Below, piece after piece: positions 6,135 to 49,461 of a stretch of 64,000 nucleotides of DNA (its first letter is position 1; each line of letters starts with the position of its first letter). This DNA is from an uncultured Planctomycetia bacterium (GTDB lineage Bacteria > Omnitrophota > Gorgyraeia > Duberdicusellales > Duberdicusellaceae), in NCBI GenBank assembly GCA_964634935.1, contig CAZWJT010000001.1, positions 288,949-352,948 of the forward strand, read 5' to 3'. A model generated the notes under the pieces. It was not told the DNA's origin, did not search any database, and saw only the letters and a program-made list of their open reading frames with translations. A program made the position numbers and the translations under genes.

Positions 6135-6215
6135 ATTTTATTTTCCGTGCCCCGCACCAAGGAAAAGTTCTTTACTGCAAACATAAGTTCATCGATAACC
6201 CTGGAAATACGTTCA

Positions 6216-7297: not shown

Positions 7298-7387
7298 TTT
7301 TTGGTCGTAACCATTTGAATAAAATCTGGTATAAGAATATCATTGAACCAAAAGAAAAGCAATCAAAAGCTTGAGTCTGGAGGCGAA

Positions 7388-9559: not shown

Positions 9560-9651
9560 AGAACTAAGATTGGCAAATCACGCTATATCCGCGAGGAAAT
9601 TGAAGAATAACACAGCCCTTAATTACGATATACACAAAACCCGCGTATTGA

Positions 9652-11229: not shown

Positions 11230-11230
11230 C

Positions 11231-12043
11231 TCACTTCCCCTCGAGGTTAATGGAAGTTTTTTCCGTACCTTTAAACACTTCAACCGTGGGAGGCTCTGGA
11301 GGAGGCGGGGGAGCGGTTTTTTTAATATTCAACAACTTCTCCCATAATTTATCAACCGTGACAAACTCCTTTGAAGTCAATCCCTGATCAAGCGGAGAAC
11401 GCAAGAGCAGCTTGATTCTGCCCATTTCCATAGCAAAGGTAAGCAGCGACGCCTGCTCCGGGGTAAGCGCAAGAGTGATCGTGGAAGGCATTTCACTGCT
11501 GACAGAGGGCATATCCGAAGTCCTGCTTTCAACTGCCAGGATAAGAACATTTTCATACATAGGCACCACGACGCTGCTTCCCTGGGGAAAAGGAAACAAT
11601 CCAATGATATCAACCTTATCTGCCGGGGCAATCATCCCGTTGATTGAACTTATTTTATCAACAGAAATAGTCATAGCTCGATAGCCTTCGGGAGTCAACT
11701 GGGAAAATTTTCCAGTTCGATAGGGTAAAAAAATCTTACTGTTGGTAATCTGCTCTCCTTTCAAGATATCCGAAGTAGCTACTTTGTCCAACGCTGAATC
11801 TACCGAAAAGAATGCCCCTTGTTCGACAAGATTCTGGGGCAGCCTGGCAAGGGCGATATGGTGAGCGGTGATTTTTGTGCCTTTATAGATATCAACCTGG
11901 GCAATGACAACAGGAATTTCTTCTTTCCGCAACAATTCCTGACGGTACTTTTCAACTGTTTGCTGCAGAAGATTTTGAAAGGCAATGACCGCTACAATCG
12001 CAAGAGCTATTCCAATTCCTAAATTAATTATTTTTTTATTCAT
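11231..12043 (-). CDS. cpaB: Flp pilus assembly protein CpaB/RcpC (SAF-domain).
   Basis: N-terminal TM helix, then EEIPVVIAQVDIYKGTKI (SAF-like), then a C-terminal domain. Positioned upstream of the secretin as in Tad loci. Confidence 0.6.
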   Translation of the reverse strand: MNKKIINLGIGIALAIVAVIAFQNLLQQTVEKYRQELLRKEEIPVVIAQVDIYKGTKITAHHIALARLPQNLVEQGAFFSVDSALDKVATSDILKGEQITNSKIFLPYRTGKFSQLTPEGYRAMTISVDKISSINGMIAPADKVDIIGLFPFPQGSSVVVPMYENVLILAVESRTSDMPSVSSEMPSTITLALTPEQASLLTFAMEMGRIKLLLRSPLDQGLTSKEFVTVDKLWEKLLNIKKTAPPPPPEPPTVEVFKGTEKTSINLEGK

Positions 12044-12054
12044 ACTGATTCTAC

Positions 12055-12954
12055 CTACCGCAGTAAATCATCCTTAATTTCAGGAACTGATTTTTTCCGA
12101 ATACTCTCCATAAAATCCTGCAATTTCTGCGATTTGATAGCATTCACTATTTCTTCCCGTATCTCGCTTAACGGTAGCGCTTGAGAAGCAATTTTTTCTT
12201 CAAGCTTCAAGATATAATATTTTCCCCCATCCTGGAAAACGTTTGAAATTTCCCCTTTCTCAAGAGGTAAGACTTTTTCCCAGTATTTATCAGAATGTTT
12301 GTTAATTTCTTCCGCAGTCAACTTGATAAGACCCAGGTCTCCTCCTTTATTTTTCGAAGGTAGAACCGAAAACTGTTCAGCAACCGCCTTAAAACTCTCT
12401 CCTTGAAGTAATTTAATCTGAACCGCCTTTGCAGTATCCATATCGTTTGTGGCAATCTCCCGGATGCGCAACTGAGGAGCGCTCTGAAGGCTTTCTTTAT
12501 TCTTATCGTAAAAACCCTGGATATCTCCTTCAGAAACAATCATCGTCTGGATGATATCCTGCAAGAGGCGTTCAACTAAAATAGCATTGAACGCTTCGAC
12601 AACGTCATCGCCCTTATCGAGGCCTCTTCGTTTTGCTTCCTGGACAAGATATGCCGTGCGGATAAGATTGTCCAGGAATGCGCGCTTCCCTTCATACGTA
12701 GAAAGCTTTGCTTTATCGTCCTCGCTGAGCTTACTCGTATCAACCTGTTTTAAAATCCGGTTAAAATCCTCAAGACCGATTGCCCAATCGTTTACTCTGG
12801 CAAGGAGAGGTCCGTTGATCTTGGCGGTAACCGGATCGGTTTTTGGAGGTTTCGTAGTTGGTTTGTCTTTGGGTTTAAAGAAGTCGAAATTGCATCCGGA
12901 GCAGAGAAGTATTGATATTACGCAGAGCACATAAACTACCGTTCGTTTTTGCAT
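12055..12954 (-). CDS. Secreted parvulin-type peptidyl-prolyl cis-trans isomerase (SurA/PrsA-like).
   Basis: Signal peptide with a Cys-containing end (LLCSGC). Parvulin motif KGGDLGLI...GEISNVFQDGGKYYILKLEE. Preceded by an AGGAGG RBS. Confidence 0.6.
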   Translation of the reverse strand: MQKRTVVYVLCVISILLCSGCNFDFFKPKDKPTTKPPKTDPVTAKINGPLLARVNDWAIGLEDFNRILKQVDTSKLSEDDKAKLSTYEGKRAFLDNLIRTAYLVQEAKRRGLDKGDDVVEAFNAILVERLLQDIIQTMIVSEGDIQGFYDKNKESLQSAPQLRIREIATNDMDTAKAVQIKLLQGESFKAVAEQFSVLPSKNKGGDLGLIKLTAEEINKHSDKYWEKVLPLEKGEISNVFQDGGKYYILKLEEKIASQALPLSEIREEIVNAIKSQKLQDFMESIRKKSVPEIKDDLLR

Positions 12955-28638: not shown

Positions 28639-30714
28639 CTATATACTTTCTTGCCAGAGTGCGCAATGGGCTTGAGCCTGCTTAACCTGCTCAGAAAGCA
28701 GAAGATGTTCACGCGAAGAAAGTTCAGGATCGCTCTTTATGATATGATAAGCGAAGAACCTCGCTTTCTTCATGGTTTCTAAATCATCGAGGGGAGTAAC
28801 GAGACTTTTTCCATGATAACCATGCTGAAACTTGCCAAAGATATCTCCGGGGCCGCGGAGCTTTAAGTCATGTTCAGAAATTACAAATCCATCTTGATTC
28901 TGAGTAAGAATCTGCAATCGCTCATAGGCTTCTTGGGGGATATCATCAGCGGCAACCATAAAAAAATACGACTGAAAGCTGGAACGCATGATCCTCCCGC
29001 GTAGCTGATGAAGTTGAGACAAGCCGAAGCGCTCAGGACTTTCAACAACCATGCACGTCGCGTTCGGAATATCCACCCCTACTTCCACTACCGAGGTAGT
29101 AACAAGCATATGGACGCTCCCTTTCTGAAAACCGTGAATCGTCTTTTCTTTTTGCTGTGCCGTCAATTCCCCATGCAAAAGCCCAAGACGAAAATCCTTA
29201 AATTCTTCACTCAATACTTCGTACATTGTTTCTGCCGAATAAACACTCGCCTCTCCGGAATCTTCTATTAAAGGACATACGACATATACTTGCCTTCCCT
29301 CGCGCATAAGCTTTTTTAAAACACCGTATACCGTGGACCGTTTCGATTCAAACACAAGCAAAGACTTGGGAAACACGCGGCCTTGCGGGTATGCATCGAT
29401 AATCGAAATATCCAAGTCGCCATAAATACTCAATGCCAGGCTGCGCGGAATTGGCGTTGCGGTCATAATAAGAATGTCCGGCCGTAAATCTTTCTGGTAC
29501 AGAACCAGCCTTTGCTCTACCCCAAAGCGCTGCTCCTCGTCAATCACTACAAGACCCAGATTCCTAAAAACAATCGTTTCTTCAAGGAGCGCGTGCGTTC
29601 CGACAATAATCCTACATGTGCCATCTTTTATTTTCCGAATCGCACCTTCTTTCTCCTCTGGAGTGAGACTTCCGGTCAAAATCTGCGAGACAATACCCAG
29701 TCCTTTGGCAAGCTTCTTAAAAGTCTCAAAATGCTGGCGTGCTACTATCTCTGTGGGAACTAAAAAAGCTGCCTGATAACCGGAACCTGCAGCAAGAATG
29801 CTTGCTAACCCGGCGACAATCGTCTTCCCGCTTCCCACGTCACCCTGAAGCAACCGGTACATCCGGTATGGAGAAAGCATATCATGAAGAATTTCTGAAA
29901 AAACTTTTTGCTGCGCATGGGTTAATTCAAAACCGAAATTCTTCCGGGCTTTTTCCAGCAATGCTTCATTAACACAATATACTACTTTTTTCTGGCTGCG
30001 GAAAGCGCGCTTTTGCCGATAAACCAAAATCTGGGATATGAAAAAATCTTCAAAGATAAATCTCCGGCGCGCCGCTTTAAGGCATTCCGGATCTTTGGGG
30101 AAATGCATCGCAAGCAGAGACTCAACAACATTAGTAAGCTTCAGTTCATTGCGTATCCCGAAAGGGATTGTTTCGATAAAGAACCGGGCGTATTGTTCAA
30201 GGGTAGTGAAAACAAGCCTCCGTAACAGCTTTTGGGTCAACCCTTGGGTTGAACTGTAAACTGGAACAATCCGCCCTGCGGTTAAAGAATCTCTGGCATC
30301 ATCCTCTTCAAACTCAGGACAAATAAATGCAAGTCTGCCGTTAAAATACTGGGGAACCCCAAAAAAAATAACCCGCATGCCTTTTTTGATATACTGGGTA
30401 ATATACGGCTGGTTAAACCAAAGAACGCTCAAAGACCCGCTCTCGTCTTCGCAGAAAGCTTCGACTTTGCTCTTGCGGCCGTAAAAAGCTCGAAGGGCTC
30501 GAATGTCTTTTATCGTTGCCTTTACAACCGCGGGTTCTCTGAGGATAAGTTCCTTGATTTTCTTGATAGCTCTGCGATCCTCATAGCGAAAAGGAAAATG
30601 ACAAAGGAGCTGTCGGACCGTAGAAATGCCAAGCCTTAAAAAGAGTTCTTCGCGCTTTGGACCAACTCCTTTCAGATAACGGATAGGAAGATTGATGTCC
30701 GGTTTAGACCCCAT
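28639..30714 (-). CDS. recG: ATP-dependent DNA helicase RecG.
   Basis: 691 aa. Wedge domain. Helicase motifs GDVGSGKT, DEEQRFG, TATPIPRS and QLRGR. Confidence 0.85.
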   Translation of the reverse strand: MGSKPDINLPIRYLKGVGPKREELFLRLGISTVRQLLCHFPFRYEDRRAIKKIKELILREPAVVKATIKDIRALRAFYGRKSKVEAFCEDESGSLSVLWFNQPYITQYIKKGMRVIFFGVPQYFNGRLAFICPEFEEDDARDSLTAGRIVPVYSSTQGLTQKLLRRLVFTTLEQYARFFIETIPFGIRNELKLTNVVESLLAMHFPKDPECLKAARRRFIFEDFFISQILVYRQKRAFRSQKKVVYCVNEALLEKARKNFGFELTHAQQKVFSEILHDMLSPYRMYRLLQGDVGSGKTIVAGLASILAAGSGYQAAFLVPTEIVARQHFETFKKLAKGLGIVSQILTGSLTPEEKEGAIRKIKDGTCRIIVGTHALLEETIVFRNLGLVVIDEEQRFGVEQRLVLYQKDLRPDILIMTATPIPRSLALSIYGDLDISIIDAYPQGRVFPKSLLVFESKRSTVYGVLKKLMREGRQVYVVCPLIEDSGEASVYSAETMYEVLSEEFKDFRLGLLHGELTAQQKEKTIHGFQKGSVHMLVTTSVVEVGVDIPNATCMVVESPERFGLSQLHQLRGRIMRSSFQSYFFMVAADDIPQEAYERLQILTQNQDGFVISEHDLKLRGPGDIFGKFQHGYHGKSLVTPLDDLETMKKARFFAYHIIKSDPELSSREHLLLSEQVKQAQAHCALWQESI

Positions 30715-30727
30715 ACTGAAGCATGCT

Positions 30728-30756
30728 CCATGAAAATTATAGAGATATTACCAAAA
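30728..30756 (-). promoter_or_regulatory. Candidate sigma70 promoter for recG. On the minus strand: TCGACA, 17-nt spacer, TATAAT.
   Basis: Read in the reverse complement of 30715-30822. GGAG lies 12 nt upstream of the recG ATG. Confidence 0.3.
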
Positions 30757-30822
30757 TTTGTCGAGAAAATAAATAAAGAACGGCGAACCAGCATTCTGCC
30801 TTGCAAAAGCAAACGCTGAGGA

Positions 30823-32013
30823 TTATTTATTCTTACGGAAAAAAATAGCAAAAGGAAGACCAAGAAAAAACATTTTGCCCAAAATGTCAAACGTAGGCTC
30901 TGAAACAAACCCCGAGGGAGCATTGGTAGTGGTGGCTAAGTCACCTAAATGCGAGTATGTAAGATACACATAATCGTTATACATTTGAAGCGAAGTGTTA
31001 CTCGGCAAACCGCCCCAGAAAGAAACACTGGTGTACAAAACCTCCAATTCCCAGCCTGTGCCGTTAAAATAGGCAAGGTTGAGATTGTAAGCTCCGGAAC
31101 CTGTTCCGCTTTCATCCGTGACATAACTGATGTAAGCATACCCTCGAGAATCCAAAGCCAAAGAAGAGTAATAACCGGTAGCAAAGGCTGAATCCACTAA
31201 ACTCATGGTCCATCCTGTACCGTTATAGGCAGCGTAGTAAAGATCATTCGCGGTAGTGTCCCTATAGCTAACCCTTCCATAGCCTTGAGCATCAAGCACA
31301 AAAGACACCTGGTCAAAGTTACGGCTGCTGTCAACAGTTGTAAAAGACCATCCTGTACCGTTAAAATTCGCGTACATAAGATCTCCGCTGTCGCGGACAT
31401 ATACAATCTGCGCGTACCCTTGTTCGTTGAGTGCAATTGCGGTCTGCTCAGACAGAACGTTAGCTTGATCATCCAAAGAAGTATGGGTCCAGCCTGTACC
31501 GTTGAATACGGAATATACCAAACCAGAGCCAAAATCATTGTAAAAACTTATGTGCGCGTAGCCTTGTAAGTCAAGCGCTAAAGATGAAGCGTACCCATCA
31601 TAACGATCATAGCTTGTTTTTGAAATATTCCAACCCGTTCCGTTAAACCAGGCATATTTTAAATCAGCTGCCATCTCATCAAGATAACTTATGTGCGCAT
31701 AACCAGAAGCATCGAGTTCGAGAGAACTATACTTTCCCACTGATCCTGCAGAATCAACAAGAACAGTATTCCAAGTTGTTCCGTCAAAAAACGCGTACTT
31801 TAAATCCTTTTGGAAAGCAGTATTATTGTCATAATAACTTACGTGGACAAAACCATTCTGGTCAATCGCAAGTGACATATATTGTGCATCAACCGTGCTG
31901 TCGACAATATTTTCCGTCCAGGCAGCGTAGGCGGCTGTGGGTTCTAAAAAAAGGTTGTGGGGAAAGAAAAAAAAGAATATCCCGATGAAGACGCTAAGCG
32001 GTTTGATACGCAT
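30823..32013 (-). CDS. Secreted repeat protein with about seven ~46-aa FNGTGW-type repeats (beta-propeller-like) and a PEP-CTERM-like C-terminal sorting signal. The start is set at MRIKPL.
   Basis: Signal peptide ending AAYA-AW. Repeats of the form YAxFNGTGW...VDS...SLALD..GYAHISY. C-terminus VSEPTFDILGKMFFLGLPFAIFFRKNK (PEP-like motif, TM helix, basic tail). Confidence 0.55.
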   Translation of the reverse strand: MRIKPLSVFIGIFFFFFPHNLFLEPTAAYAAWTENIVDSTVDAQYMSLAIDQNGFVHVSYYDNNTAFQKDLKYAFFDGTTWNTVLVDSAGSVGKYSSLELDASGYAHISYLDEMAADLKYAWFNGTGWNISKTSYDRYDGYASSLALDLQGYAHISFYNDFGSGLVYSVFNGTGWTHTSLDDQANVLSEQTAIALNEQGYAQIVYVRDSGDLMYANFNGTGWSFTTVDSSRNFDQVSFVLDAQGYGRVSYRDTTANDLYYAAYNGTGWTMSLVDSAFATGYYSSLALDSRGYAYISYVTDESGTGSGAYNLNLAYFNGTGWELEVLYTSVSFWGGLPSNTSLQMYNDYVYLTYSHLGDLATTTNAPSGFVSEPTFDILGKMFFLGLPFAIFFRKNK

Positions 32014-32316
32014 AGAGAAAGCATACCACAAAAGAAATAAAACGGAAAGACATACATACGATAATACCTGTTGCATGATTTCGGGGGTAGGTTTTAGGAT
32101 ATAGGAAGTAGCGTGAAAAGAAAACAATTCTGTTCATGAAACCATACATAGTATCCGCTCGTTCTCTGCCGTAATTGGGAAACTTTATTTTTTGAGGATG
32201 GAAAGTTTCTTTCCCTGTAAATCAGAAAATACTATTGTTTTACAATGATACCACGCCCTTCATTGACAAACTGCAGTCACAAATGATACTGTGCGTAGAT
32301 GAACCAATGGGATGAC

Positions 32317-32775
32317 TCAGAAAGCGCGGCTATTGAGGATAAGATTAACCGGTCCGTCTTCGGTATTTTCAATATACATTTCTGCCCCAAATTTTCCTGA
32401 AACACACCGTATGCCCTTGTTTTTTATCTTTTCGATAAACGCTTCGAAAATATCGCGGGCTTCTGCTGGGGCCATTGCATTTTCAAATGAAGGCCTCCTT
32501 CCTTTCTCAGTCAAAGCGCAGAGGGTAAAGTTCGGAATGCACATACAATCATACGCTTTTTCTTTCAGGGAATAATGAAATTTTCCTTCCTGATTCTCAA
32601 AAATGCGGCAGTTAATTACCTTCTCGATCATTGGCCCAACAAGAGAAACCGTATCGCCCTGTTCAATACCAAGAAAGACAAGAAGCCCTTTGGCAATCTT
32701 TCCCTCCTCAAACAAAGCTCCATCCAGATTCCATAAAAGCCGCGCATTCTGTACACGCTTGATTAGTATTTTCAT
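32317..32775 (-). CDS. dtd: D-aminoacyl-tRNA deacylase.
   Basis: MKILIKRVQ start. GLLVFLGIEQGD. NFTL...RPSF motifs matching Dtd. Confidence 0.7.
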   Translation of the reverse strand: MKILIKRVQNARLLWNLDGALFEEGKIAKGLLVFLGIEQGDTVSLVGPMIEKVINCRIFENQEGKFHYSLKEKAYDCMCIPNFTLCALTEKGRRPSFENAMAPAEARDIFEAFIEKIKNKGIRCVSGKFGAEMYIENTEDGPVNLILNSRAF

Positions 32776-33695
32776 AATACCTCAGAACATCTTCCCTGGT
32801 AACTATTCCTCGCTTCTAATTCACGCTGAATATCCGAAATCACTCTTTGCTTCTCGTTCACCCAGGAAGGGGCGACCAGATACTTTTTATCCGCATCGGA
32901 AACAAGGCGTAAAATAACCATATTTTTTGGAAGTAACTCCAGGCAATCACATATCCAAGAAACATACGCATCGCGGGAAGAAACAGTTATTTTCCCCTCT
33001 TTATATCCAGATTCAAAAACCGTCCCGGAAAGAATATGGAACGCGTGAAACTTCACGCCATCAATAGAGTTCAAAGAAAGGAAGCGCATCGTTTGAAGCA
33101 TATCATCCCTTGTTTCATCGGGTAAACCCAGAATAACATGCGCAGCGACAAGAATTCCTTTTTCCTTAGCGTAAGATACCCACGCTGCAAAGTCATCCCG
33201 AGTATGGTTCCGATTAATCCGAATAAGCGTCTGGTTGTTTGCGCTCTGCAGTCCATATTCAATCCATACCATATGGGTACTCGCGTATCCGGCGATAAGA
33301 TCGATCTTCTCCCGGGAAAGAGAAATACTCTCAGGCCGGGTAGAAACCGACAGCCCGATAATTTCCGGATACTTTCTGATCGCATCAAACTTTTCCTGTA
33401 ACTCCTCGATTGGCGCGTAGGTCGAGGTAAATCCCTGAAAATAGGCGATAAACTTCCGAACACCAAACCGCTTCTTAAGCCGCAAAATGCTTTCTTCTAT
33501 CTGGGAAGTAATTTCTTTTTCCGAATAGGCGTAGCGGTTAAAAGCACGATTGTTGCAAAAAAAACATCCCTGATTACTCAAAGTTCCGTCAATATTTGGA
33601 CAGGAAAATCCGCCATCGAGACTGAGCTTGTGCACTCGCTCTCCGTATCCTGTTTGCAAGAAATCATTGAAGGAAAGATAGCGGTTCTTCATCAC
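32772..33695 (-). CDS. Radical SAM protein of the TIGR01212 family.
   Basis: N-terminal CPNIDGTLSNQGCFFC cluster and a TIM-barrel-like remainder. Confidence 0.6.
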   Translation of the reverse strand: MMKNRYLSFNDFLQTGYGERVHKLSLDGGFSCPNIDGTLSNQGCFFCNNRAFNRYAYSEKEITSQIEESILRLKKRFGVRKFIAYFQGFTSTYAPIEELQEKFDAIRKYPEIIGLSVSTRPESISLSREKIDLIAGYASTHMVWIEYGLQSANNQTLIRINRNHTRDDFAAWVSYAKEKGILVAAHVILGLPDETRDDMLQTMRFLSLNSIDGVKFHAFHILSGTVFESGYKEGKITVSSRDAYVSWICDCLELLPKNMVILRLVSDADKKYLVAPSWVNEKQRVISDIQRELEARNSYQGRCSEVL

Positions 33696-34243
33696 ATTCT
33701 TGCGACACGCCTGTTGCGTTCAATCAGACTGTATGCGCATCCGCAATAGTCCTGTCTCCGTATTCCGAGTGCACGCGCACGAACAAGGGATTCTTGAAAT
33801 CCTGCTTTCTTCTTAAAATCGCGCTCAAGAAACATACTGCTTCCGATGCCTCGCCCTATCGTATTTATAAGAACACTGCTTTTATGGGGACTCACGCTGA
33901 GGGTGGTAGTAAAAAAATCAAATTTGTGCTCTTGGGCAAATTGCAATACCCGCGCAAGTCGCATACGAAAGCAAAGGTGGCAGCGTTCTCCTTGTTCCGG
34001 AGTATGCGAAAATGGCTTCACCGTTTTAAACCACTCCCGGACGTCATATTCGCCGTAATGCACCGGGCATTCGTAATGACCCGTGATAATTGCAAGATCG
34101 GCTTGACGCGCATCGTACTCTTTGCGGGGATGGATATTGGGATTATAAAAAAAACCCTCCACGGAAAATCCTTCTGCGCGTAAACGTTCAATGCAGATAC
34201 TCGCGCACCCTACGCAACAGATATGGAGAAGAACTCTTTTCAT
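33692..34243 (-). CDS. queH: Epoxyqueuosine reductase QueH (DUF208).
   Basis: LLHICCVGCAS N-terminal motif plus further conserved Cys. Size about 180 aa. Confidence 0.6.
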   Translation of the reverse strand: MKRVLLHICCVGCASICIERLRAEGFSVEGFFYNPNIHPRKEYDARQADLAIITGHYECPVHYGEYDVREWFKTVKPFSHTPEQGERCHLCFRMRLARVLQFAQEHKFDFFTTTLSVSPHKSSVLINTIGRGIGSSMFLERDFKKKAGFQESLVRARALGIRRQDYCGCAYSLIERNRRVARM

Positions 34244-34250
34244 AGCGCCG

Positions 34251-34883
34251 CTATGCGCTTAATAAAGCAGTGAAACTTGAGTAAGCCTTGGCAGGATGTT
34301 TGTCTTTTAATATGGCACTACCCACACAGATATAATCAACCCCTGAAGCTGAAACTTCTTTTACATTGGAAAGTTTCACTCCCCCGTCAATGCCTAGGGA
34401 AAGTTTGTGTTTCCTCTGAAACAATTTGATCTTTTCAAGCACCTCCGGAACAAAGGGCGCTCCGTAAAACCCCGGAATCACTGACATGAACAAGACTGAA
34501 TCAACGGCATCCGCATAGGGCGTTAGCGTTTCCAGAGGCGTCCCGGGATTTATGGCCAGACCTACCTTAAGACCTTGGTCTCTTACCGCCCGAATGACAT
34601 CGGAAATATTTTGCGATATTTCGACGTGGAAAATAATGTGCTGAGCTCCAAATTTCCTGCATGGCTCTATCCACTCCAGCGGATCACAAACCATAAGATG
34701 AACTTCAGTGTAAACTTTTGCACTCAAACTACTGAGATCATTGCTTCTGATGCTGGTTGAAGCAACAAAATTCCCATCCATAATATCGACCTGCACATGT
34801 GCACAAAACGACGCAGTCGTATCAAGCATCAAGTGAAACTCTTCGCGGCTGCTGGTGAGAATCGCCGGAACTATCTGTTTCAT
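34251..34883 (-). CDS. rpe: Ribulose-phosphate 3-epimerase.
   Basis: IVPAILTS...HVQVDIMDGNFV motif. TIM-barrel size. Confidence 0.7.
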   Translation of the reverse strand: MKQIVPAILTSSREEFHLMLDTTASFCAHVQVDIMDGNFVASTSIRSNDLSSLSAKVYTEVHLMVCDPLEWIEPCRKFGAQHIIFHVEISQNISDVIRAVRDQGLKVGLAINPGTPLETLTPYADAVDSVLFMSVIPGFYGAPFVPEVLEKIKLFQRKHKLSLGIDGGVKLSNVKEVSASGVDYICVGSAILKDKHPAKAYSSFTALLSA

Positions 34884-35101: not shown

Positions 35102-35542
35102 TTACGGCTTGGGAATCCCAATGAGCGTAAACACCATTACAAAGATAGCAACGGTTTCAATAATACCCAGCACCATCAGATAGTTGCCAAAACCTTTTCC
35201 TGTCTCACCCAAAGCATCCGCAGCCGCGGCTCCGGCTTTACCCTGAAGCCAGGCAGATGCAGCAAGGGCGATACCGGCAAAGCCTCCCAGAATTATCTGA
35301 TAGAGATAACTCTCTGGCGGCAAATTTGCAGCCCGGATAGCATTCCGTACTATCATTCCGTAGACGGTTTGAGAAAGCGGAGCACCAACAAAAGCAATCA
35401 TAATAAAGGGGGCAGCCTTATTCTGTAAATAGGCTTTTTTCCAAGCTCCCACCGCCGCCATAGCCGCAGCTCCAGCCCCAAGAGCTGAACCAACCGCCGC
35501 TAATGCAATTGAAAGACTCATATCACCAAAGCCACTCACCAT
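35102..35542 (-). CDS. atpK: V/A-type ATPase proteolipid subunit K.
   Basis: Gly/Ala-rich four-helix hydrophobic protein, last gene of the V-ATPase operon. Confidence 0.7.
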   Translation of the reverse strand: MVSGFGDMSLSIALAAVGSALGAGAAAMAAVGAWKKAYLQNKAAPFIMIAFVGAPLSQTVYGMIVRNAIRAANLPPESYLYQIILGGFAGIALAASAWLQGKAGAAAADALGETGKGFGNYLMVLGIIETVAIFVMVFTLIGIPKP

Positions 35543-35543
35543 A

Positions 35544-37352
35544 CTACCCTCCTCTGTTTAAACTTTCTTGGTTTTCCTCTTCTTTAAAAGGCAGGTAAGA
35601 CTTTCCTGACCATTGCATACCAAGGTGCCCAGAAAATTCAAGCATATTAAGCCGAATCCCATGCACGATAACTGCCATGCAGGCAAGCGCGATGTTCAAG
35701 GCATGGCCAAGAAACAATATACACGCAGCCCCCAAGCCGGAAAGCACCGTGCCGAATCCGGCAGAAAGCCCCATATTATTAAAAGTGCTGGCAACAATGA
35801 CCGAAGCCGTTCCAACAGCGAAAAGACGCAGGTAAGAAACAATATCGCCGAAAGAACTGATGATTTTCAGCGGAGCGTCAATGAGCGATGCAGCTATGGC
35901 TTTTAAGATATTTTTTTCTGGGCTTGAGAAAAGCAGTACCAAGGCGATCCCGACAATGAAAAAGTATTTCCCAAACACAGGAAAAGGATTATTGAGAATA
36001 AGCGTCCCGGCTAAAAAAAACATTCCCCAGAGAATCGATATCCAGCCCGCCTCAGCCAGCGCTCCCTTTGAATTGATGACCCGGAGCGCCAACAGAAGAT
36101 GGGCAATACTCAAATGCACAACACCGATAACAAAGCAAAAATAAATGACGAAATTTTGGCTTAATTCGGAAAAACTGTATAATTTATCAATAATGAGGAC
36201 TTTGAAAAATGGCAGGCGAGCGATTTGTTCAAATCCAAACCAAGTTCCGGTTACCGCTCCCCAGATAATCGTTGAACAGCTGAGAAGATAAAGTAAAAAG
36301 AACGGCTCAGGCGGAGCATTCCGTACTTTTCGATGGATAAAAAAGGTAAGAAACAGAAATAATAATCCATATCCGCCATCACCAACAATCATCGCGAAGA
36401 AAAGGCTGAAAAATACAAGAAACCAGAAACTAATATCAAACTCTTGGTATCCAGGCACAGTGTTCATAAAACGAAATACAGGATCGATAATCCGTATCCA
36501 GGGAGGATTTTCAACCAACGTAGGAACCTCTTCAGGACTGCCCGGATCTTCTATCAAATAACCGGCATGAAACCCCTTTGCTTCAGCAACCAGGTTTTTT
36601 AACCCAGAAACCGGACAAAAACCCTCGAGATAGGAAAAAACACCCTCTTGCTGCATCGTATGCTTTACGGTTAAAAATTTCAATTTTTCCCCAAGAGTAC
36701 GCAGATGGATAGAAAATATCTTCTGCAAACAACCTTGTTCCTTCAGAGAAGTTTCAAGCTTCGTTTTCTTAGCCCGAAGAACGTGCTGAAGATATCGTAA
36801 TTCATCGGCAGATCTTTTTGGAAGAAGAACTTCGTCATACTCAAAATCGGCTTCCGTATGCAGAGAAAGAGAAACGGCAAAAACACTGTTCTTTACCGTC
36901 CGAATGACCTGTAAGCTACCGGCCTTTGCTTTTTTCCATTGCTGCTTGGTTAAATGGAAAAGTCTCACATAAATTCCCGAAGAACGTAGAGACACAATTT
37001 CCTGAGGATTAAAATCACCCCATGGCGCAAACCAGAGAAGCTGTGTCTGCAGATCGGATAATTCATTATCGAGCATTCGATATTCACGATCGAATTCAAT
37101 AATTTCTCGGGCTTTTTGCTTGGCATCTTCATAGGAAAGGCTTAGCTGCATGCCCGAACCACAGTGTGCAGAAATTACATCAGCCGCTTTCTTAAAAAGC
37201 GCGTAATCCTGCTCCAGGCGTTGGACATGTTCCGGAAGAGCAGGACAGCTTTCCCGGATATGCAAGACGCCAAGCTTTCGTAACGCGAGAAGAAAATTAT
37301 CGCGCTCGTTCTCAGCGACAAAAAGAGTGATTTTCTTCATCCGGACAATCAC
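35544..37352 (-). CDS. atpI: V/A-type ATPase subunit I (a-subunit, 116-kDa homolog).
   Basis: 602 aa: an N-terminal soluble coiled-coil half followed by a multi-TM C-terminal half. Confidence 0.7.
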   Translation of the reverse strand: MIVRMKKITLFVAENERDNFLLALRKLGVLHIRESCPALPEHVQRLEQDYALFKKAADVISAHCGSGMQLSLSYEDAKQKAREIIEFDREYRMLDNELSDLQTQLLWFAPWGDFNPQEIVSLRSSGIYVRLFHLTKQQWKKAKAGSLQVIRTVKNSVFAVSLSLHTEADFEYDEVLLPKRSADELRYLQHVLRAKKTKLETSLKEQGCLQKIFSIHLRTLGEKLKFLTVKHTMQQEGVFSYLEGFCPVSGLKNLVAEAKGFHAGYLIEDPGSPEEVPTLVENPPWIRIIDPVFRFMNTVPGYQEFDISFWFLVFFSLFFAMIVGDGGYGLLFLFLTFFIHRKVRNAPPEPFFLLYLLSCSTIIWGAVTGTWFGFEQIARLPFFKVLIIDKLYSFSELSQNFVIYFCFVIGVVHLSIAHLLLALRVINSKGALAEAGWISILWGMFFLAGTLILNNPFPVFGKYFFIVGIALVLLFSSPEKNILKAIAASLIDAPLKIISSFGDIVSYLRLFAVGTASVIVASTFNNMGLSAGFGTVLSGLGAACILFLGHALNIALACMAVIVHGIRLNMLEFSGHLGMQWSGKSYLPFKEEENQESLNRGG

Positions 37353-37966
37353 GCAACAACCTCCTGCAATGCCTCTTTACGCTGGATATTCGATTTTGCG
37401 ATTTTACCGGTTACTACTGCCGCGGTCCGAACATCACCGAGATAAATTTGGATGCGGCGGATACATTCTCTCGTTTCGGGAATTTTGACTTTTTCAAAAA
37501 GATTCACCCGCTGCGTGGTAATTCTCAGTTCTTCCCGCAAAAGGGAAAGTTGCTTTTCGAGAATGATAAATTCAATCTTTAACGTAACCATATCCTTAAC
37601 GGCCTTCAGTCCATAATCCACCCAGAGAGGTACAAGCACCAAATCGTATTCTTCTTCTCGGAAACGAACATCCTGAAAAACAGGAATATCAATCCCGGCA
37701 ACATTGTTCTGGGCAGTTTCAACCCGCTCAACCCGCACAAGCCCGGTCAAATCAATCGTATCAGAAAAAAGCTCAATCCATTGGTCAACCTCAGATTGCA
37801 AGGTACGGATTGAATTTTGCATCGATTCTTGGAGACGCTGAATTTTTAAAATCTCAAGCTGTAATTGCTGTTTTTTAATCTGCAATGTCGGTAGATAACG
37901 GACAAAACGCTTCAGGGCGTCTTTCTGTTTTTTGAGCTCGTTTTTTGTAAGCTTAACTTTAATCAC
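37349..37966 (-). CDS. atpD: V/A-type ATPase subunit D.
   Basis: 205-aa coiled-coil protein starting MIKVKLTKNELKKQKDALKRF. Confidence 0.7.
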   Translation of the reverse strand: MIKVKLTKNELKKQKDALKRFVRYLPTLQIKKQQLQLEILKIQRLQESMQNSIRTLQSEVDQWIELFSDTIDLTGLVRVERVETAQNNVAGIDIPVFQDVRFREEEYDLVLVPLWVDYGLKAVKDMVTLKIEFIILEKQLSLLREELRITTQRVNLFEKVKIPETRECIRRIQIYLGDVRTAAVVTGKIAKSNIQRKEALQEVVA

Positions 37967-37977
37967 GTTAAAACGTT

Positions 37978-39270
37978 TTATTTCGGCCAGAATTTTTTAA
38001 GTAGATCCGTCCGAAAACTGGTTTCTTCCGGAGAAAAACAACTCGCGAGAATCTTCCAGCCGTTATCCAATGCTTCTTCCAACGGAATATTCACGCGTAA
38101 ATTCATCATTTGCTCTTCAAAGAGCCGTCCATACTTGAGAAGTTTTTTATCCCACTCGCTTGTCCTAAACCCCATAGACCTTTTTTCTTCCGCTTCCATG
38201 TATTGCGCATAGAGCTGTATCATCCCGTCCATGATTGCCCTATGGTCTTCACGAGTATCTTTGTTGACTAACTGCTTCAGACGGCTTAAAGAACCGAATG
38301 GCTCGATTCTTCCCTTACGCAGATAAAATTGTCCTTCCGTAATATACCCGGTATTATCCGGAACCGGATGGGTAACATCATCGCCGGGCATTGTAGTTAC
38401 AGCAAGAATAGTAATGGAACCCGCCCCTTCGAAATCAACCGCCTTTTCATATCGCGAAGCAAGCTGGCTGTAAAGATCCCCGGGGTATCCCCTGTTCGAT
38501 GGCACCTGCTCCATGGTAATAGCTATTTCTTTAAGCGCGTCGGAAAAATTAGTCATATCAGTAAGAAGCACCAGCACTCTTTTTCCTTCAAGGGCGAACT
38601 TCTCAGCCACTGCCAGAGAAAGATCAGGAACCATCAACCCTTCAACAATAGGATCAGACGCCGTATGCACAAAAAATATGGTCCGGCTGAGTGCTCCGCC
38701 CTCTTCCAGGGCATCTTTAAAATAGATGTACTGATCATATTTAAGGCCGATACCGCCCAGAATAATCATATCGACTTCCGCTTGGAGAGCGATTCGAGCG
38801 ATCAATTCATTATAAGGCTCTCCAGACACTGAAAATACCGGAAGCTTCTGTGATTCCACAAGAGAGTTAAAAATATCGATCATCGGGATATTCGTACGAA
38901 TCATCCGGCGCGGGATAATCCGTTTTGCCGGATTCACCGCGGGGCCAGCAATTTCAGTAAGATTCTCGGTAACCGGAGAACCGTTATCCCGAGGCATGCC
39001 ACTTCCGTTGAAAATACGCCCAAGCATCGCCGGAGAAAATCCGACACGCATCGGATCGCCCAGAAAACGCACCTCATCACCCGTAGAGATTCCCCGAGAG
39101 CCCGCGAAAACTTGAAGATATACCAGATCTCCATCAAGCCGAATTACTTGAGCTAAAGATTTTCCGCGGCTGCTGGTGATTTCAGCAAGCTCCTCATAAG
39201 CCACATGCTCTGCGCGGACAGTGATAACATTACCAACGATACTCAGGATTTTCGTGCATACTTTTTTCAT
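37978..39270 (-). CDS. atpB: V/A-type ATPase subunit B.
   Basis: [34 protein letters not shown] motif characteristic of the V-type B subunit. Confidence 0.85.
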
Positions 39271-39274
39271 ACTG

Positions 39275-40993
39275 TTACACCTTTAATAAAACGTTGATAT
39301 TTTTTTCTTGCTCAGAAAATTTGTCGCTCCCCCACGGTTTATAGTTCCAGTCGATAAACGTTTGCCTAAGCTGATAGAAAAATTTTCGAGCGTCATCTTT
39401 CGTGGAGAATGAGAAACTTTTTTGTAATACTCCTACAATTTTTGCGAAAACATACTGTTGGCGCTCAAGACTCGTCGCCGCATCAATTTCATCAAATGCA
39501 TTCTGCTGGAGATACACACTGTCAAATAATTCTCCCTTAAGATAAACGATAAAATCCTCCAAAGAAGTTCCTTCTTCTCCAACTACCTTCATCATTTGGC
39601 GAACTTCTTCTCCTTTCTGAAGCACATCTTTCGCGGCTGTTCGCAGTTCATCGGAAATAAAACTTTTGTATTTTCCCCAGCTTTCCAGCGGATCGATTGA
39701 AGGAAATTTTCTAGCGTTGGCGCGGTCACGAGAAAGACCGTGAAACGCACCGACTACTTTCAAAGTTCCCTGAGTCACTGGTTCTTCAAAGTTTCCTCCG
39801 GCGGGACTCACGGTGCCGCCGATAGTCAAACTTCCTGCAGTCCCATCGTGAAGCTTCACCACGCCAGCGCGCTCATAAAAACTGGCAATCCTTGACTCAA
39901 GATAGGCAGGATAGGCTTCTTCTCCGGGTATTTCCTCAAGACGCCCAGAAATCTCCCGCATTGCCTGTGCCCAGCGAGACGTAGAATCAGCGAGCAAAAG
40001 AACATGGAGGCCCATCTGCCGGTAGTACTCAGCGATTGTCGTTGCCGTATACACAGAAGACTCTCTTGCCGCAACTGGCATTGAAGAAGTATTACAGATA
40101 ATGATCGTCCGTTCCATGAGCGATTTCCCGGTCCGCGGATCCTGAAGATGGGGAAATTCGCGTAGCGTTTCAACGACTTCGCCTGCACGTTCACCGCACG
40201 CTGCGATAATGACAATATCTATCTCGGCGTAGCGGCTGGTTAATTGCTGAAGCACTGTTTTACCGGCGCCAAACGGACCAGGAATACAGTAGGTTCCGCC
40301 TTTGGCTACTGGAAACAGCGTATCAATAATACGAATCTTTGTGACCAAGGGTTCTTCTGGTGAACATTTTTCCTTATAGGCATTAATTGGTATCTTCACC
40401 GGCCATCGAAAATGCATCTTCACTTCAACCCCCGCACCCTTTTCATCTTTGAGATATGCGATGTTTTGATGAATGGCATAGTCGCCAGCAGAAGCTATCC
40501 AATCAACGATATATTCACCCTGGAGAAAAAATGGGACCATGATTTTATGCTTAAAAATCCCTTCTGGAACATAGCCCAATTCTTGGCCGGCAAGAACTTT
40601 CTCATTTTTCGATCTCGTCGGAGTAAAAAACCAGTTTTTCTCTGAGGAAAGAGGAGCAAGCTCAATGCCCTTGGGAAGAAAAAAGCCAAATTGCCGAGCA
40701 AGTTCAGGCAGGGGATTTTGCAATCCATCATAAATCTGGCACAAAAGACCGGGACCAAGATCAACGGAAAGCATTTCTCCGGAAAACTCAACTGTATCCC
40801 CAATCCGGATGCCTTTGGTGTATTCAAAAACCTGCAAAAAAGCGATATTTCCCTTCACGCGGATAACTTCGGATTTCAGCCGTCGGTCGCCGAGCAGAAT
40901 ATAAGCCACCTCATTCTGCATAATCATTTCTTGGCAAAGAACTCCTACCATGTTCCCATTCACTGAGACTACTTTTCCAGAATGTTTATTCAT
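39275..40993 (-). CDS. atpA: V/A-type ATPase catalytic subunit A.
   Basis: Walker [10 protein letters not shown], a non-homologous insert region, and 572 aa length. Confidence 0.85.
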
Positions 40994-41489
40994 AGGTTAC
41001 CTCGCAGAGTTTCATAAAAACCTCTTTCCCCTTTTCTTTGGAAAACGCTGCCATCCGTTCAATAATTTGAAACTTAAGAAAATAAATCATAAGCCAGTTC
41101 AGATCAAAATAAAAGCATGACTGCTGGGATTCAAGAAAATTCCAGCGCAATTGGAGGATTTTTTGCTCAACATGTAATGGATTTGATTCTGTAAAAATAT
41201 CTTTCAAAAAAACGGGAATCTTCGGCTCACCAGACCCTCGCCGAGCCCTACGGATATCCGCCAAGGAATAGCGTAAATTTTTCTCAAAAGATTTCCATCT
41301 TTTTAAGAAATCTGAGTCTCCTGGAAGATGCTCAAAATCAGAAAGGTTCGTCCGCCGCAATAATTCGATCTCATGGGAACTCAGCCATTTTTCTGCCTGC
41401 TCCAGAAAATATTCCCGGGAAAATTCTGGCTTGGCACCAAAACGCAGGGTTGGCAGAGAACTAACAAGATAGTAGTGTTTTTTAGACAT
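40986..41489 (-). CDS. Hypothetical protein conserved in spirochaete/chlamydia-type V-ATPase operons, between E and A. Possible accessory or stator subunit.
   Basis: 167 aa. Overlaps atpA by 8 nt. It occupies the same slot as the uncharacterised gene seen in E-x-A-B-D-I-K operons. Confidence 0.45.
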   Translation of the reverse strand: MSKKHYYLVSSLPTLRFGAKPEFSREYFLEQAEKWLSSHEIELLRRTNLSDFEHLPGDSDFLKRWKSFEKNLRYSLADIRRARRGSGEPKIPVFLKDIFTESNPLHVEQKILQLRWNFLESQQSCFYFDLNWLMIYFLKFQIIERMAAFSKEKGKEVFMKLCEVTYE

Positions 41490-42096
41490 TCCCGCGCACG
41501 ATATTTAAAAGACCCAGTAACTTTGGGTTAATAAATACCATAAGACTTTCAGTAATTGATTCATCAGTGAAGTCGTAGTAAATATTTTTATCTTTCTCTC
41601 CAATGCGGAAACCTTTTTCAACCGCAGGAGAAACTTTAAGAGTAACTCCTCTTTGCAATTCTTCGGATAGAGCACCCAAAAGGGCGCGCTCTAATCTTTC
41701 CTTATCGTGGCTCGTAAGCACAACTTCAATAGATTGAATTCCTTCTTTGCGAAAACTTTCGATCACCTTCAGTATGATTTCTTTTAACAACTCACCGGAA
41801 AATGCATTTCCTGTCTCACGCTTGACCGCAGCAGAGAATAGCTCAGTGATGCGCGAACGAAGACTCAAAATCAAATCCCGAGCTGCCTGCTGAAGAGCCT
41901 GCTCGGTATTTTTACGTATCCGGGATGCTTCGGCTTCCGCCTGTTTCAGAATCTGAGCGCTTTTTTTGTGCGCTTCATCAAGCAACGCTTGAGCCTGGTT
42001 TTTTGCGTTCTGCAGAATTTCCTCTGATTTACGCTGAGCTTGTTCGACTCCATCAGTTTTAATCTTTTCAATCAGGCTTTTTAACTCCATCTCCAT
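41482..42096 (-). CDS. atpE: V/A-type ATPase subunit E.
   Basis: 204-aa charged coiled-coil N-terminus (KTDGVEQAQRKSEEILQNAKNQAQAL...), first gene of the operon. Confidence 0.7.
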   Translation of the reverse strand: MEMELKSLIEKIKTDGVEQAQRKSEEILQNAKNQAQALLDEAHKKSAQILKQAEAEASRIRKNTEQALQQAARDLILSLRSRITELFSAAVKRETGNAFSGELLKEIILKVIESFRKEGIQSIEVVLTSHDKERLERALLGALSEELQRGVTLKVSPAVEKGFRIGEKDKNIYYDFTDESITESLMVFINPKLLGLLNIVRGNV

Positions 42097-46878: not shown

Positions 46879-48384
46879 TTATCCTTCGGGAACATTGTGC
46901 CAAAGATAATATTTGCTTACCTTGCCTAAAAACTGCAACGGATATCGTCTATTATACTGTGAAATAATCACATACGATAGTGATTTATCAGGAATAAAAT
47001 CTGGCTGAAAGAAGTAGAGCGGCGTTGAAGTATCATAGAGAGAAAGATACCGCAAAACTGCCTTATCAATATAGAAAGCTTCATAAAAGACATTCTTCTC
47101 TTTTAAAAAATCGACAATTTGGCGTAACCCCTTGTGGTAACTGATCGCGGGTTGCAAAATAAAATTAGCAGACAAAAGAATCACCACCCAACCTAAGAAA
47201 ACCATCCAGAATAATTTCCTTGTTTCGGCTTTCCGCTTCAAGAACAAAAATAAACAGAAACACCCAACCATAAGAAAAGTAAGAAAATCATTCTGCCCGA
47301 ACAGCGACGAAGGACAGAAAAAGAAATAGATCCCTGCCCCTAAGAAAAGAAGCGAAAACAAAGCCAGGAGAAAAATAAAATAGTATTTGTGCCACCGGTA
47401 AAACCCGAGAAGTTCCATTGTCGCAAGCACCGAAACCGGGACGCTCAATACCAAGAGATACATAACAAGCTTTGATTTCACCAGGCTTAAAAAAATAAAC
47501 CCGGCAATAAGCCAGATAGAACAAAAACGCTCAAATGCCGAGTTTGTCCCTTGCCGGACTATCCGTATTAACCTGCCTAACGACAATACTCCCCAAGGGA
47601 AGAAACTCGGAACGAATACAAGAACGTAGAAAAAGAACGGCTGGGCGTGACTCGAAGGAGCAATGCCACGGGCAAGACTTTGCCGAAAAAGCATTTGCTG
47701 CGCGTAGTCTGGCTGGATAAACACAGAAACACTGAAAATCCATACACCGATGAGAAACAGTGCTGAAAAGTTGGCTATAAAAAAATAGGTGCAGTACTTT
47801 TTTTTGTTCGGTCCACTCAGAATAAAAAAAAGTTCGGTGACAAAAGGAATAAAAAAACCGAAAGCGCCCTTTGTAAAACATGCGAGAAAGCTCAAGATGC
47901 CGCTCGCGACACACAATCCGTATCTATCCTGCACTAAGGACTGATAAAAAAGAAAAAGACCAGCGGTGAGAAAAAATACAAACACAATGTCCATACGAAT
48001 TATTACGGTCATTGCATAAAAAATCAGCAAGGTAAGAAGAATGGCCGTGGCATACAGCGCGCGCTCTTCGGAACCAAACCGGCGCACGAATACATAGAGG
48101 GCAAACGCCATAAAAAAGGCAAAAGCAGTATTCACTGCGATAATCCACGGCAAACCCTTGATCCCCCAATGCGAAAAAAAAGAAATCATCCAGAAATAGA
48201 AAGGTGGTTTTTCGTAGTAATTTTTCCCGGCAAGGGTTGGAATAAAGATACTTGTGCTCGATTGGATACTCTGCGCGACGAGAATATCACGGGGTTCATC
48301 TGGAAGAAACAGGTCGCGGAAGAATGAAGCGGAACTGTAAAGCAAAAGGCAAAAAAACAACAGCAAGATAACCTTTTTTTTCAT
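46879..48384 (-). CDS. GT39/ArnT-like polyprenyl-phosphate-dependent glycosyltransferase (about 12-13 TM).
   Basis: 501 aa, highly hydrophobic. N-terminal DEPRD...KPPFYFW region typical of ArnT/PMT-fold enzymes. Confidence 0.55.
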   Translation of the reverse strand: MKKKVILLLFFCLLLYSSASFFRDLFLPDEPRDILVAQSIQSSTSIFIPTLAGKNYYEKPPFYFWMISFFSHWGIKGLPWIIAVNTAFAFFMAFALYVFVRRFGSEERALYATAILLTLLIFYAMTVIIRMDIVFVFFLTAGLFLFYQSLVQDRYGLCVASGILSFLACFTKGAFGFFIPFVTELFFILSGPNKKKYCTYFFIANFSALFLIGVWIFSVSVFIQPDYAQQMLFRQSLARGIAPSSHAQPFFFYVLVFVPSFFPWGVLSLGRLIRIVRQGTNSAFERFCSIWLIAGFIFLSLVKSKLVMYLLVLSVPVSVLATMELLGFYRWHKYYFIFLLALFSLLFLGAGIYFFFCPSSLFGQNDFLTFLMVGCFCLFLFLKRKAETRKLFWMVFLGWVVILLSANFILQPAISYHKGLRQIVDFLKEKNVFYEAFYIDKAVLRYLSLYDTSTPLYFFQPDFIPDKSLSYVIISQYNRRYPLQFLGKVSKYYLWHNVPEG

Positions 48385-48431
48385 AGACTAAAATGAGTCT
48401 CGCGGTTCTCCTTTTATTTTTTCGGACTTTC

Positions 48432-48725
48432 TTATCTGGTTGAACGCAACCGTGATTTATGATGAATAAAATAGAGATTCCGCGCGTAGATAAAGATTCC
48501 CAGTGATTGACCGATGATAAACACCGGATCGCGCCGATAAACTGAATAGATCAACAGGATGATTCCTCCCAGAATACTGAAAAGCCAGAATACCGGAGGA
48601 ATAGTACTTTCTTTTCTCTTTTCGCTGGCAATCCATTGGATGAAAAAACGCAGAAAAAAGAAAAATTGCCCCATAAGACCAAGCGATATCCAAAGTAACT
48701 CGCTAGTTTTCATCATTCCGCGCAA
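48432..48725 (-). CDS. Small membrane protein, GtrA-like / lipid-A-disaccharide-synthase N-terminal-domain-like.
   Basis: 97 aa with 3 TM. Positioned between a GT2 polyprenol-phosphate glycosyltransferase and a GT39 enzyme, as in GtrABC/ArnCT systems. Confidence 0.45.
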   Translation of the reverse strand: MRGMMKTSELLWISLGLMGQFFFFLRFFIQWIASEKRKESTIPPVFWLFSILGGIILLIYSVYRRDPVFIIGQSLGIFIYARNLYFIHHKSRLRSTR

Positions 48726-49461
48726 ACTCTATACGCATTATTCTCCTGGACAGCCAGAAAATCCCCACCAAGTCGAAAATTCCTTTACCAAGCCGGTTGG
48801 CAACACTGTATTTTGAATAGCCAAATTTCCGGGGTTGGTGCAGAACAGGCACCTGATGCACCGAATATCCCATTCGGCGTAACACATAAGGGAAAAAACG
48901 ATGGAAATTTGCAAAAAAGGGAAAAGAAAGAATACATTCTCGCCTGAAGCAACGGAGAGAGCATCCAACATCTTTTATTGAATCATTCAGAATTATCCTA
49001 CGGAAAAAATAAGCAATTCGCGAAGATAGAATACGCGTAAAACTATCTTCTCGCTTCTGGCGTATTCCGGTAACACAATCAAATTGTTTTGAAAAATCCA
49101 GAAGTTTTCCGATTTCTTCCGGAGGATTTTGCAAATCCGCATCTAACGTAATAACCCAAATACCCCTGGCACGAAGAAATCCAGCGCAGAGAGCAGCACT
49201 CTGCCCGGCGTGTTTTGCAAGAGAATAGGCCCGGGTATTGATAAATTCCTTTTCAAGGCTCTTCAATACTTCCAGGGAATTATCGGTGCTTGCGTCGTTT
49301 ATATAGAGAATTTCATACGTCTCTGCGCGGGCAGAGAAAAAAACAGCAATCCGCTGGTGAAGAATTTTTAATGAATCCTCTTCATTATATACAGGAATAA
49401 CTACGGAATATTCAGGAAAAGACTCCGGGGTAACTTCAGAATGTCGCTTCCATGCGTCCAT
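48703..49461 (-). CDS. Family-2 glycosyltransferase, polyprenol-phosphate sugar synthase type (ArnC/GtrB/DPM1-like).
   Basis: YSVVIPVYNEEDSL start, DASTD, and LDADLQNPPEEI (DxD) motifs. Confidence 0.7.
   Translation of the reverse strand: MDAWKRHSEVTPESFPEYSVVIPVYNEEDSLKILHQRIAVFFSARAETYEILYINDASTDNSLEVLKSLEKEFINTRAYSLAKHAGQSAALCAGFLRARGIWVITLDADLQNPPEEIGKLLDFSKQFDCVTGIRQKREDSFTRILSSRIAYFFRRIILNDSIKDVGCSLRCFRRECILSFPFFANFHRFFPYVLRRMGYSVHQVPVLHQPRKFGYSKYSVANRLGKGIFDLVGIFWLSRRIMRIEFARNDEN

Follow-up and report, generated by a model that had tools for sequence, protein, structure and literature searches.

The 64-kb stretch of DNA analysed here (hereafter the window; positions 288,949 to 352,948 of the 353,849-bp contig CAZWJT010000001.1 of assembly GCA_964634935.1) carries, on the minus strand of 30823..32013, a gene for a secreted repeat protein, designated P0001, whose C-terminus resembles a known sorting signal without matching the models that define it. 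The locus raises the question of how such a protein is delivered to and held at the cell envelope, and which function it performs there. The answer to which we assign about even chances is that P0001 represents an exported seven-bladed, lectin-like beta-propeller with a clade-specific tail that would be processed by an exosortase-like enzyme, and that the protein would play a binding role at the cell surface. The single gene as such, for a secreted beta-propeller whose C-terminus bears a sorting or anchoring signal, is unsurprising. New in the present case is a lineage-specific PEP-CTERM-like tail on an already widespread, uncurated propeller family.

Tandem repeats and the propeller fold

The gene is part of a long open reading frame (ORF) that covers 30823..32127 of the minus strand. 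Translation from the ATG at position 32013 yields a product of 396 amino acids that is identical to the stored P0001 sequence, and the stop codon is a TAA at 30823..30825. All elements that an earlier note on this DNA, made from the sequence alone, had described for 30823-32013 were located there on the minus strand. The features of the gene and its product are listed in the order of the protein:

30823..32013, minus strand: complete gene for the 396-amino-acid P0001 (the public-collection gene call uses the same ATG)
31924..32013, minus strand: Sec-type signal peptide, amino acids 1-30, with MRIK, a hydrophobic core and AYA|AW (by sequence inspection)
30916..31932, minus strand: seven tandem repeat units forming the propeller, amino acids 28-366 (by repeat delineation, shuffle test, DNA periodicity, AlphaFold2 and Foldseek)
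30895..30924, minus strand: juxtamembrane motif NAPSGFVSEP, amino acids 364-373, a candidate recognition or cleavage motif (by clade conservation and alignment to VPEP)
30838..30894, minus strand: polar spacer and hydrophobic transmembrane helix TFDILGKMFFLGLPFAIFF, amino acids 374-392, with [DN]-x-L-G-K (by the AlphaFold2 helix at 375-395 and column counts)
30826..30837, minus strand: basic cluster RKNK, amino acids 393-396 (by sequence)

The earlier note had described about seven repeats, and seven tryptophan-anchored units were delineated in P0001, comprising amino acids 28-76, 77-123, 124-170, 171-217, 218-263, 264-316 and 317-366 (46-53 residues each) with the anchoring residues W32, W81, W128, W175, W222, W268 and W321. 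The consensus of the units can be written as NGTGW-x4-VDS-x5-Y-SSLALD-x2-GYAHISY-x6-L-x-YA-x-F, and the starts of the motif [FY][ND]G[TS][TG]W are located 47, 47, 47, 46 and 53 residues apart. The pairwise local alignment of the units resulted in a mean score of 65.6, compared with 22.7 +/- 1.1 for 200 shuffles, and thus lies about 39 standard deviations above the expectation. The repeats are also visible at the DNA level, where six copies with a period of 138-159 nucleotides, mostly 141 nucleotides, were detected in the gene. The repeated NGT sequons were considered as sites of N-glycosylation as well, and this idea was dropped because the asparagine is not kept in the consensus of the wider family.

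An AlphaFold2 model of P0001, built from an alignment of 72 sequences, reached a mean predicted local distance difference test value (pLDDT) of 88.9, with the strands mostly above 90, and a predicted template modelling score (pTM) of 0.85. In the model, 28 beta-strands (7 x 4) are flanked by one helix at the N-terminus, corresponding to the signal peptide, and by another at the C-terminus (residues 375-395). In a Foldseek comparison with the PDB, the top 20 matches were the seven-bladed Photorhabdus lectins PLL, PLL2-5 and PHL (e.g. 8q82, 6rgg and 5mxh), with E-values of 1e-13 to 1e-11, template modelling (TM) scores of 0.70-0.74 when normalised by target, and 11-14% sequence identity. These were followed by six-bladed sialidases (TM score by target 0.29-0.51), the seven-bladed GH145 BT3686 and a PL42 lyase (0.55-0.61), and the lectins CV39L and AofleA, and no WD40-type scaffold was present among the 50 matches listed. 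The strands of the AlphaFold2 model and the Foldseek ranking therefore uphold the seven-bladed propeller, for which the earlier note had named AlphaFold as the appropriate check.

Searches of the PDB sequences with phmmer and with a profile detected no homologous solved structure for P0001 and returned no lectin. The only profile matches were TIM barrels of de novo design (7mcc, 7smj and variants of sTIM11; E-values of 2e-7 to 2e-4), and they were rejected as an artefact of the repeat period, because the predicted fold is all-beta and the repeat periods as well as an 'L-K-x-A ... I-A-Y' pattern coincide.

Structural neighbours and the repeat family

In the lectin PHL, four-stranded 'W-motif' blades build up a pseudo-sevenfold propeller, and sugars are bound between the blades, in pockets with two conserved tryptophans per site (PMC5584973). 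P0001 shares with the PLL/PHL proteins, its best structural match, the seven four-stranded blades made of tandem repeats and the pseudo-sevenfold symmetry. It differs from them in that sequence homology is undetectable at this level of identity, in a C-terminal membrane tail of a kind that is absent from PLL/PHL, and in possessing one invariant tryptophan per repeat, whereas the lectins contain two in each sugar pocket. The invariant columns among the homologs of P0001 are confined to positions of the repeat consensus (W, Y, G, S and D), so that conservation is blade-periodic, and no blade-specific invariant set of Arg, Glu, Asp, Tyr or His residues that might form a catalytic constellation was found among the aligned homologs. 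This pattern, along with the structural neighbours and the extracellular modules that are fused to the relatives, points to a binding role of the lectin or adhesin-like type, and the ligand may well be a carbohydrate.

The earlier note had regarded the repeat as loosely reminiscent of BNR/Asp-box blades without matching them. This view proved accurate, as P0001 matches nothing above cut-off in Pfam or NCBIfam and has no match to BNR_4 (PF15892) at E<=10, whereas its relatives are marginal on that model. Some relatives obtain 42.9-49.8 bits on BNR_4 (cut-off 27.3), and P0053 and P0003 pass it by their whole-protein scores, although no more than the final 40-60 positions of the profile are matched. 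Within the clade, P0006, P0008 and P0011 obtain 28.9-31.1 bits on DUF7253 (PF23911; cut-off 25.1 bits) as a sum of weak repeat matches at profile positions 63-89, and P0001 does not match this model either. On SBBP (PF06739) P0001 scores 13.2 bits, compared with a cut-off of 20.5. A similarity to the NCBIfam model 'PDIAV motif-containing lipoprotein' (20.5 bits; cut-off 90) was discarded as a single-blade resemblance of a protein that lacks a lipobox. Since the passes on BNR_4 and DUF7253 are summed single-blade matches, and since the NCBI naming of the relatives follows their accessory domains, the repeat has to be regarded as uncurated rather than rare. The repeat family to which the P0001 propeller belongs is very large and uncurated, and it occupies the margin of the BNR/sialidase-like propellers.

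The likeness to BNR/Asp-box proteins comprises the four-stranded blades, a tight G-x-x-W hairpin in P0001 that recalls only the end of the Asp-box, relatives that reach or approach the cut-offs of BNR_4 and DUF7253, and the occurrence of sialidases among the fold matches. The differences are the motif x-N-G-T-G-W of P0001 in place of the Asp-box S-x-D-x-G-x-T-W, which is absent, the seven blades compared with the six typical of sialidases, and catalytic residues that are not evident. With respect to these data, it appears highly improbable that the P0001 propeller acts on carbohydrates as an enzyme resembling sialidases, GH145 or PL42 instead of serving as a binding module. Such enzymes are indeed found by Foldseek, and the BNR_4 scores of some relatives point in the same direction, but P0001 itself fails on BNR_4 and is devoid of the Asp-box, the TM scores of the enzymes remain below those of the lectins, and the blade-periodic conservation leaves no invariant set of candidate catalytic residues.

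An exhaustive phmmer search for relatives of the P0001 repeat identified 16,865 representatives of 50%-identity clusters at E<=1e-3 and 3,064 at E<=1e-30. The propeller, which the earlier note had considered novel, can accordingly be called so in the sense that no curated family covers the repeat, but not with regard to its occurrence, as the repeat is present in at least 16,865 such representatives. Within a set of species-representative genomes that contains no member of the clade with the P0001-type tail, bacterial relatives were found in Armatimonadota, Verrucomicrobiota, Planctomycetota, Elusimicrobiota, Cloacimonadota, Coatesbacteria and Patescibacteria, and archaeal relatives in Archaeoglobaceae, Methanoregulaceae, Thermoplasmatota and Bathyarchaeota. 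The modules fused to relatives include the Por_Secre_tail of type IX secretion (T9SS), FlgD-Ig (FlgD_ig) tails, PKD, Fn3 and CARDB, and other relatives end in a planctomycete dockerin-like module or, in archaea, in a transmembrane segment with a basic anchor. Genuine PEP-CTERM domains are present on more distant relatives as well (P0036 with 30.8 bits, P0053 with 25.6 bits, loci L027 and L031). Such a variety of fused surface modules is characteristic of an extracellular domain that is used in a modular way.

Giant multi-propeller proteins belong to the family as well, with lengths of thousands of residues and as many as 19 stretches matched. The size of the family, these giant members, the fusion to many generic extracellular modules and the high regularity of the repeats would suit a structural component of the envelope, for instance of the S-layer type, or a protein-protein scaffold without glycan specificity. 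We consider such a role of P0001 improbable, and the dominance of carbohydrate-binding or carbohydrate-active propellers among the structural neighbours, with no WD40-type protein among the 50 matches listed, speaks weakly against it.

An observation in its own right concerns the Armatimonadota metagenome-assembled genome CSMAG_1302, which contains at least eight propeller paralogs (loci L001, L002, L005, L006, L008, L009, L015 and L036). The encoded proteins mostly comprise 800-1300 amino acids, and a C-terminal FlgD-Ig/T9SS-like module is common to six of the eight, which indicates a large lineage-specific expansion.

Export and the C-terminal tail

The N-terminus of P0001, MRIKPLSVFIGIFFFFFPHNLFLEPTAAYA|AW, begins with a short n-region of basic character, which is followed by a hydrophobic core and by an A-x-A site that lacks a lipobox cysteine, and it is therefore read as a Sec signal for signal peptidase I. 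The signal peptide postulated by the earlier note is thus present, with MRIK, the hydrophobic stretch and AYA|AW. Residues 7-22 form a helix of low pLDDT in the AlphaFold2 model, and the junction A-[YH]-A|A-W is kept in the alignment of the homologs. Judged from these sequence features, P0001 is probably exported by the Sec pathway and cut at AYA|AW.

The C-terminus reads ...TNAPSGFVSEPTFDILGKMFFLGLPFAIFFRKNK* and comprises the GFVSEP motif, a hydrophobic helix and the terminal RKNK. Its conservation was deduced from 13 close homologs that are 41-49% identical, have lengths of 378-417 amino acids and show the same architecture. The tail consensus of this clade is NAPxGFV[P/S]EP-x2-[DN]-x-L-G-K-hydrophobic-basic. 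The mean pairwise identity among the 13 homologs amounts to 75% in the decapeptide of amino acids 364-373, to 47% in the propeller and to 37% in the spacer and helix. All 13 sequences agree in G368, V370, E372 and P373, whereas position 371 is occupied by proline in nine, by serine in two (including P0001), and by lysine and glutamate in one each. As NAPxGFVxEP is the most conserved segment of the clade, a recognition motif is favoured over a passive linker. In addition, the V-x-E-P of the clade shares its alignment columns with the VPEP of P0036 and P0053, both of which pass PF07589.

The PEP-CTERM sorting signal was defined by a near-invariant PEP, a hydrophobic stretch of 14 residues and a basic cluster, and proteins with this signal are typically expanded as multiple copies (Haft et al. 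2006; PMC1569441). P0001 has the same order of elements, with a motif that precedes a transmembrane helix and with basic residues clustered at the very C-terminal end, in addition to an N-terminal signal peptide. The likeness extends to an E-P motif at the interface of periplasm and membrane, to paralogous copies, of which the window contains two, both of the propeller family, to a diderm host and to the genuine PEP-CTERM domains on distant homologs of the propeller. The signal of P0001 and its clade differs in the relaxed first proline and in a polar spacer with [DN]xLGK that replaces an uninterrupted hydrophobic run, and the P0001 tail fails both hidden Markov models. The earlier note had classified the tail as a PEP-CTERM-type signal, and of this claim the tripartite anatomy and the alignment of V-x-E-P to VPEP are retained, but not the assignment by TIGR02595 and PF07589. 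Because it fails both models, the tail is here called PEP-CTERM-like and is not filed as a member.

The curated cut-offs of the two models are 16 bits for TIGR02595 and 20.7 bits for PF07589. None of five homologous tails matched TIGR02595 at E<=10, and the best score on PF07589 was 7.9 bits, obtained by one tail. The tail of P0036 served as a control and scored 33.4 and 37.1 bits in the same TIGR02595/PF07589 test. The result that the earlier note had named as speaking against its classification, a C-terminus that fails TIGR02595-type models, is formally the one obtained, with the control tail passing. The Synerg-CTERM model was touched by one homologous tail, with a score under its cut-off.

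Several observations weigh against an exosortase-processed lectin-like protein. The P0001 tail gave no match to TIGR02595 or PF07589 at E<=10, the scans with the full-length protein were negative too, and no other curated C-terminal sorting domain of NCBIfam was matched by the tail. P0001 contains SEP instead of the near-invariant PEP, and a polar spacer (TFD) and a conserved lysine are present where canonical signals are purely hydrophobic. In the approximately 884 kb of loci examined, this type of tail was detected only on the present propeller family, and its modularity is unsupported there. No exosortase was found among the multi-pass membrane ORFs of the window or adjacent to the homolog in locus L046. 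Moreover, the similarity to lectins is at the level of the fold only, with 11-14% identity and no sequence match to solved structures.

Part of this evidence likewise bears on another explanation, which we regard as rather unlikely, namely that the C-terminus is a plain inner-membrane anchor that keeps the propeller in the periplasm without sortase-like processing, and that VxEP is a structural linker or the relic of an ancestral PEP-CTERM signal. Such an anchor would agree with the failure of all curated sorting-signal models, with the lack of an exosortase in the window and beside the L046 homolog, with the confinement of the tail type to one family in the sequence examined, with the plain transmembrane and basic anchors of archaeal relatives, and with the very short linker of about 10 residues between propeller and helix. 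It would, however, leave unexpected that the decapeptide with its four invariant residues is so much better conserved than both the propeller and the helix, and it has to be reconciled with the alignment of VxEP to the genuine VPEP signals of related propellers and with a family that is otherwise joined to surface-delivery signals.

Three further searches concerned the tail. A search for proteins sharing only the tail, performed with the alignment of the 13 tails, found nothing, the query being too short for the word index. The DNA pattern GFVPEPxxxxLGK yielded nine matches metagenome-wide, all of which were dismissed as chance matches without the tail architecture. No literature linking Omnitrophota to exosortase or PEP-CTERM was found.

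The window itself encodes a secretin (PF00263; 160.7 bits), a SurA-like peptidyl-prolyl isomerase (PPIase) and a LAB_N protein, and a diderm envelope of the host is therefore well supported. The best named relatives of the RecG protein encoded directly downstream of the propeller gene belong to metagenome-assembled genomes of Candidatus Omnitrophota/Omnitrophica (42-48% identity), and the closest match shows 55% identity. As far as these sequences indicate, the host is a divergent Omnitrophota-like bacterium. In the reading that we prefer, an exported propeller with a processed tail, P0001 would enter the Sec pathway and be cleaved by signal peptidase at AYA|AW. It would then be anchored transiently by its C-terminus, with the basic end inside, until the conserved VxEP is recognised by an exosortase-like enzyme and the protein is transferred to the cell surface, where it may act as a multivalent lectin or an adhesin-type binding module.

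Genomic setting and implications

Two further features of the window belong to the setting of the propeller gene:

32014..32316, minus strand: upstream intergenic region of 303 bp between dtd and the propeller gene, presumed to provide an own promoter (no sigma-54 site, no Rfam element)
58793..59968, minus strand: gene for the paralog P0007 of 391 amino acids, 48% identical to P0001 and of the same architecture, between pyrR and gpmA

The propeller gene is solitary, with dtd (32317..32775) on one side and recG (28639..30714) on the other. The downstream intergenic region of 108 bp contains a near-consensus sigma-70-like promoter (TCGACA-17-TATAAT) that points into recG, and no Rfam element was detected near the propeller gene. 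Sigma-54 promoter motifs are found upstream of proteobacterial PEP-CTERM genes. In the window this motif is not enriched, and it is absent upstream of both paralogs, which adds to the differences between the P0001 gene and PEP-CTERM genes. The closest available relative shares the gene order rpe-queH-radical SAM-dtd-recG-rsmD-coaD-yceD-rpmF-plsX, but its dtd and recG are separated by only 10 bp (L056 3344..7973, compared with 28639..34883 of the window). The propeller gene therefore represents either a single-gene insertion in the present genome or a loss in the relative.

The tail of the paralog P0007 is GFVPEPTLDILGRVLFFGIPGLLLYARKK and includes a canonical-looking GFVPEP. The window thus contains two copies of the tail, both on proteins of the propeller family, and no other type of protein with this tail was found in it. 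Housekeeping genes also surround a homolog from another metagenome. Close homologs with equal longest contigs (four of 45,789 bp and two of 147,470 bp) hint at possible small sets of co-located paralogs.

Further genes of the window relate to the cell envelope or to membrane complexes. A cluster resembling Tad/Flp-pilus or type II secretion system (T2SS) genes is located at 2910..12954 on the minus strand and comprises the SurA-like PPIase, RcpC/CpaB and two pseudopilin-like ORFs. In this Tad/Flp-like cluster the secretin (9652..11283) is fused to a C-terminal TonB_C domain, a fused ParA/CpaE-like and T2SSE ATPase (CpaE/CpaF-like) is encoded at 7388..9559, and the ORF at 2910..6134 specifies 1074 amino acids with an N-terminal transmembrane segment and without a Pfam match. 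A trio at 46879..49461 (minus strand) encodes a GT2 glycosyltransferase, a small LAB_N membrane protein and a PMT_2/ArnT-like glycosyltransferase with 12 transmembrane segments, which suggests an undecaprenyl-phosphate-sugar-dependent modification of an envelope glycoconjugate. An apparent operon for a V/A-type ATPase at 35102..42096 (minus strand) includes a membrane protein of 602 amino acids that resembles subunit I and matches PF01496 weakly (20.7 bits), the remaining subunits being assigned by size and order only.

A more far-reaching proposal, speculative and in our estimate unlikely, is that the tail composed of GFVxEP, [DN]xLGK, a helix and a basic end constitutes an unrecognised class of sorting signal that is specific to a deep Omnitrophota-like lineage. 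A dedicated member of the exosortase family, or an entirely different enzyme, would process it, and it would bring a small set of paralogous lectin-like propellers to the surface, where they would let these bacteria, which may depend on a host, attach to partner cells or particles.

Knowledge of the phylum Omnitrophota derives for the most part from metagenome-assembled genomes. Should the tail function in sorting, the exosortase/PEP-CTERM repertoire would gain a lineage-specific variant, and the display of surface proteins in this phylum would become more accessible to study. The repeat, in turn, occurs in more than 16,000 bacterial and archaeal protein clusters without a curated model or a known function, and a single ligand or crystal structure would be enough to annotate a very large part of this metagenomic dark matter.

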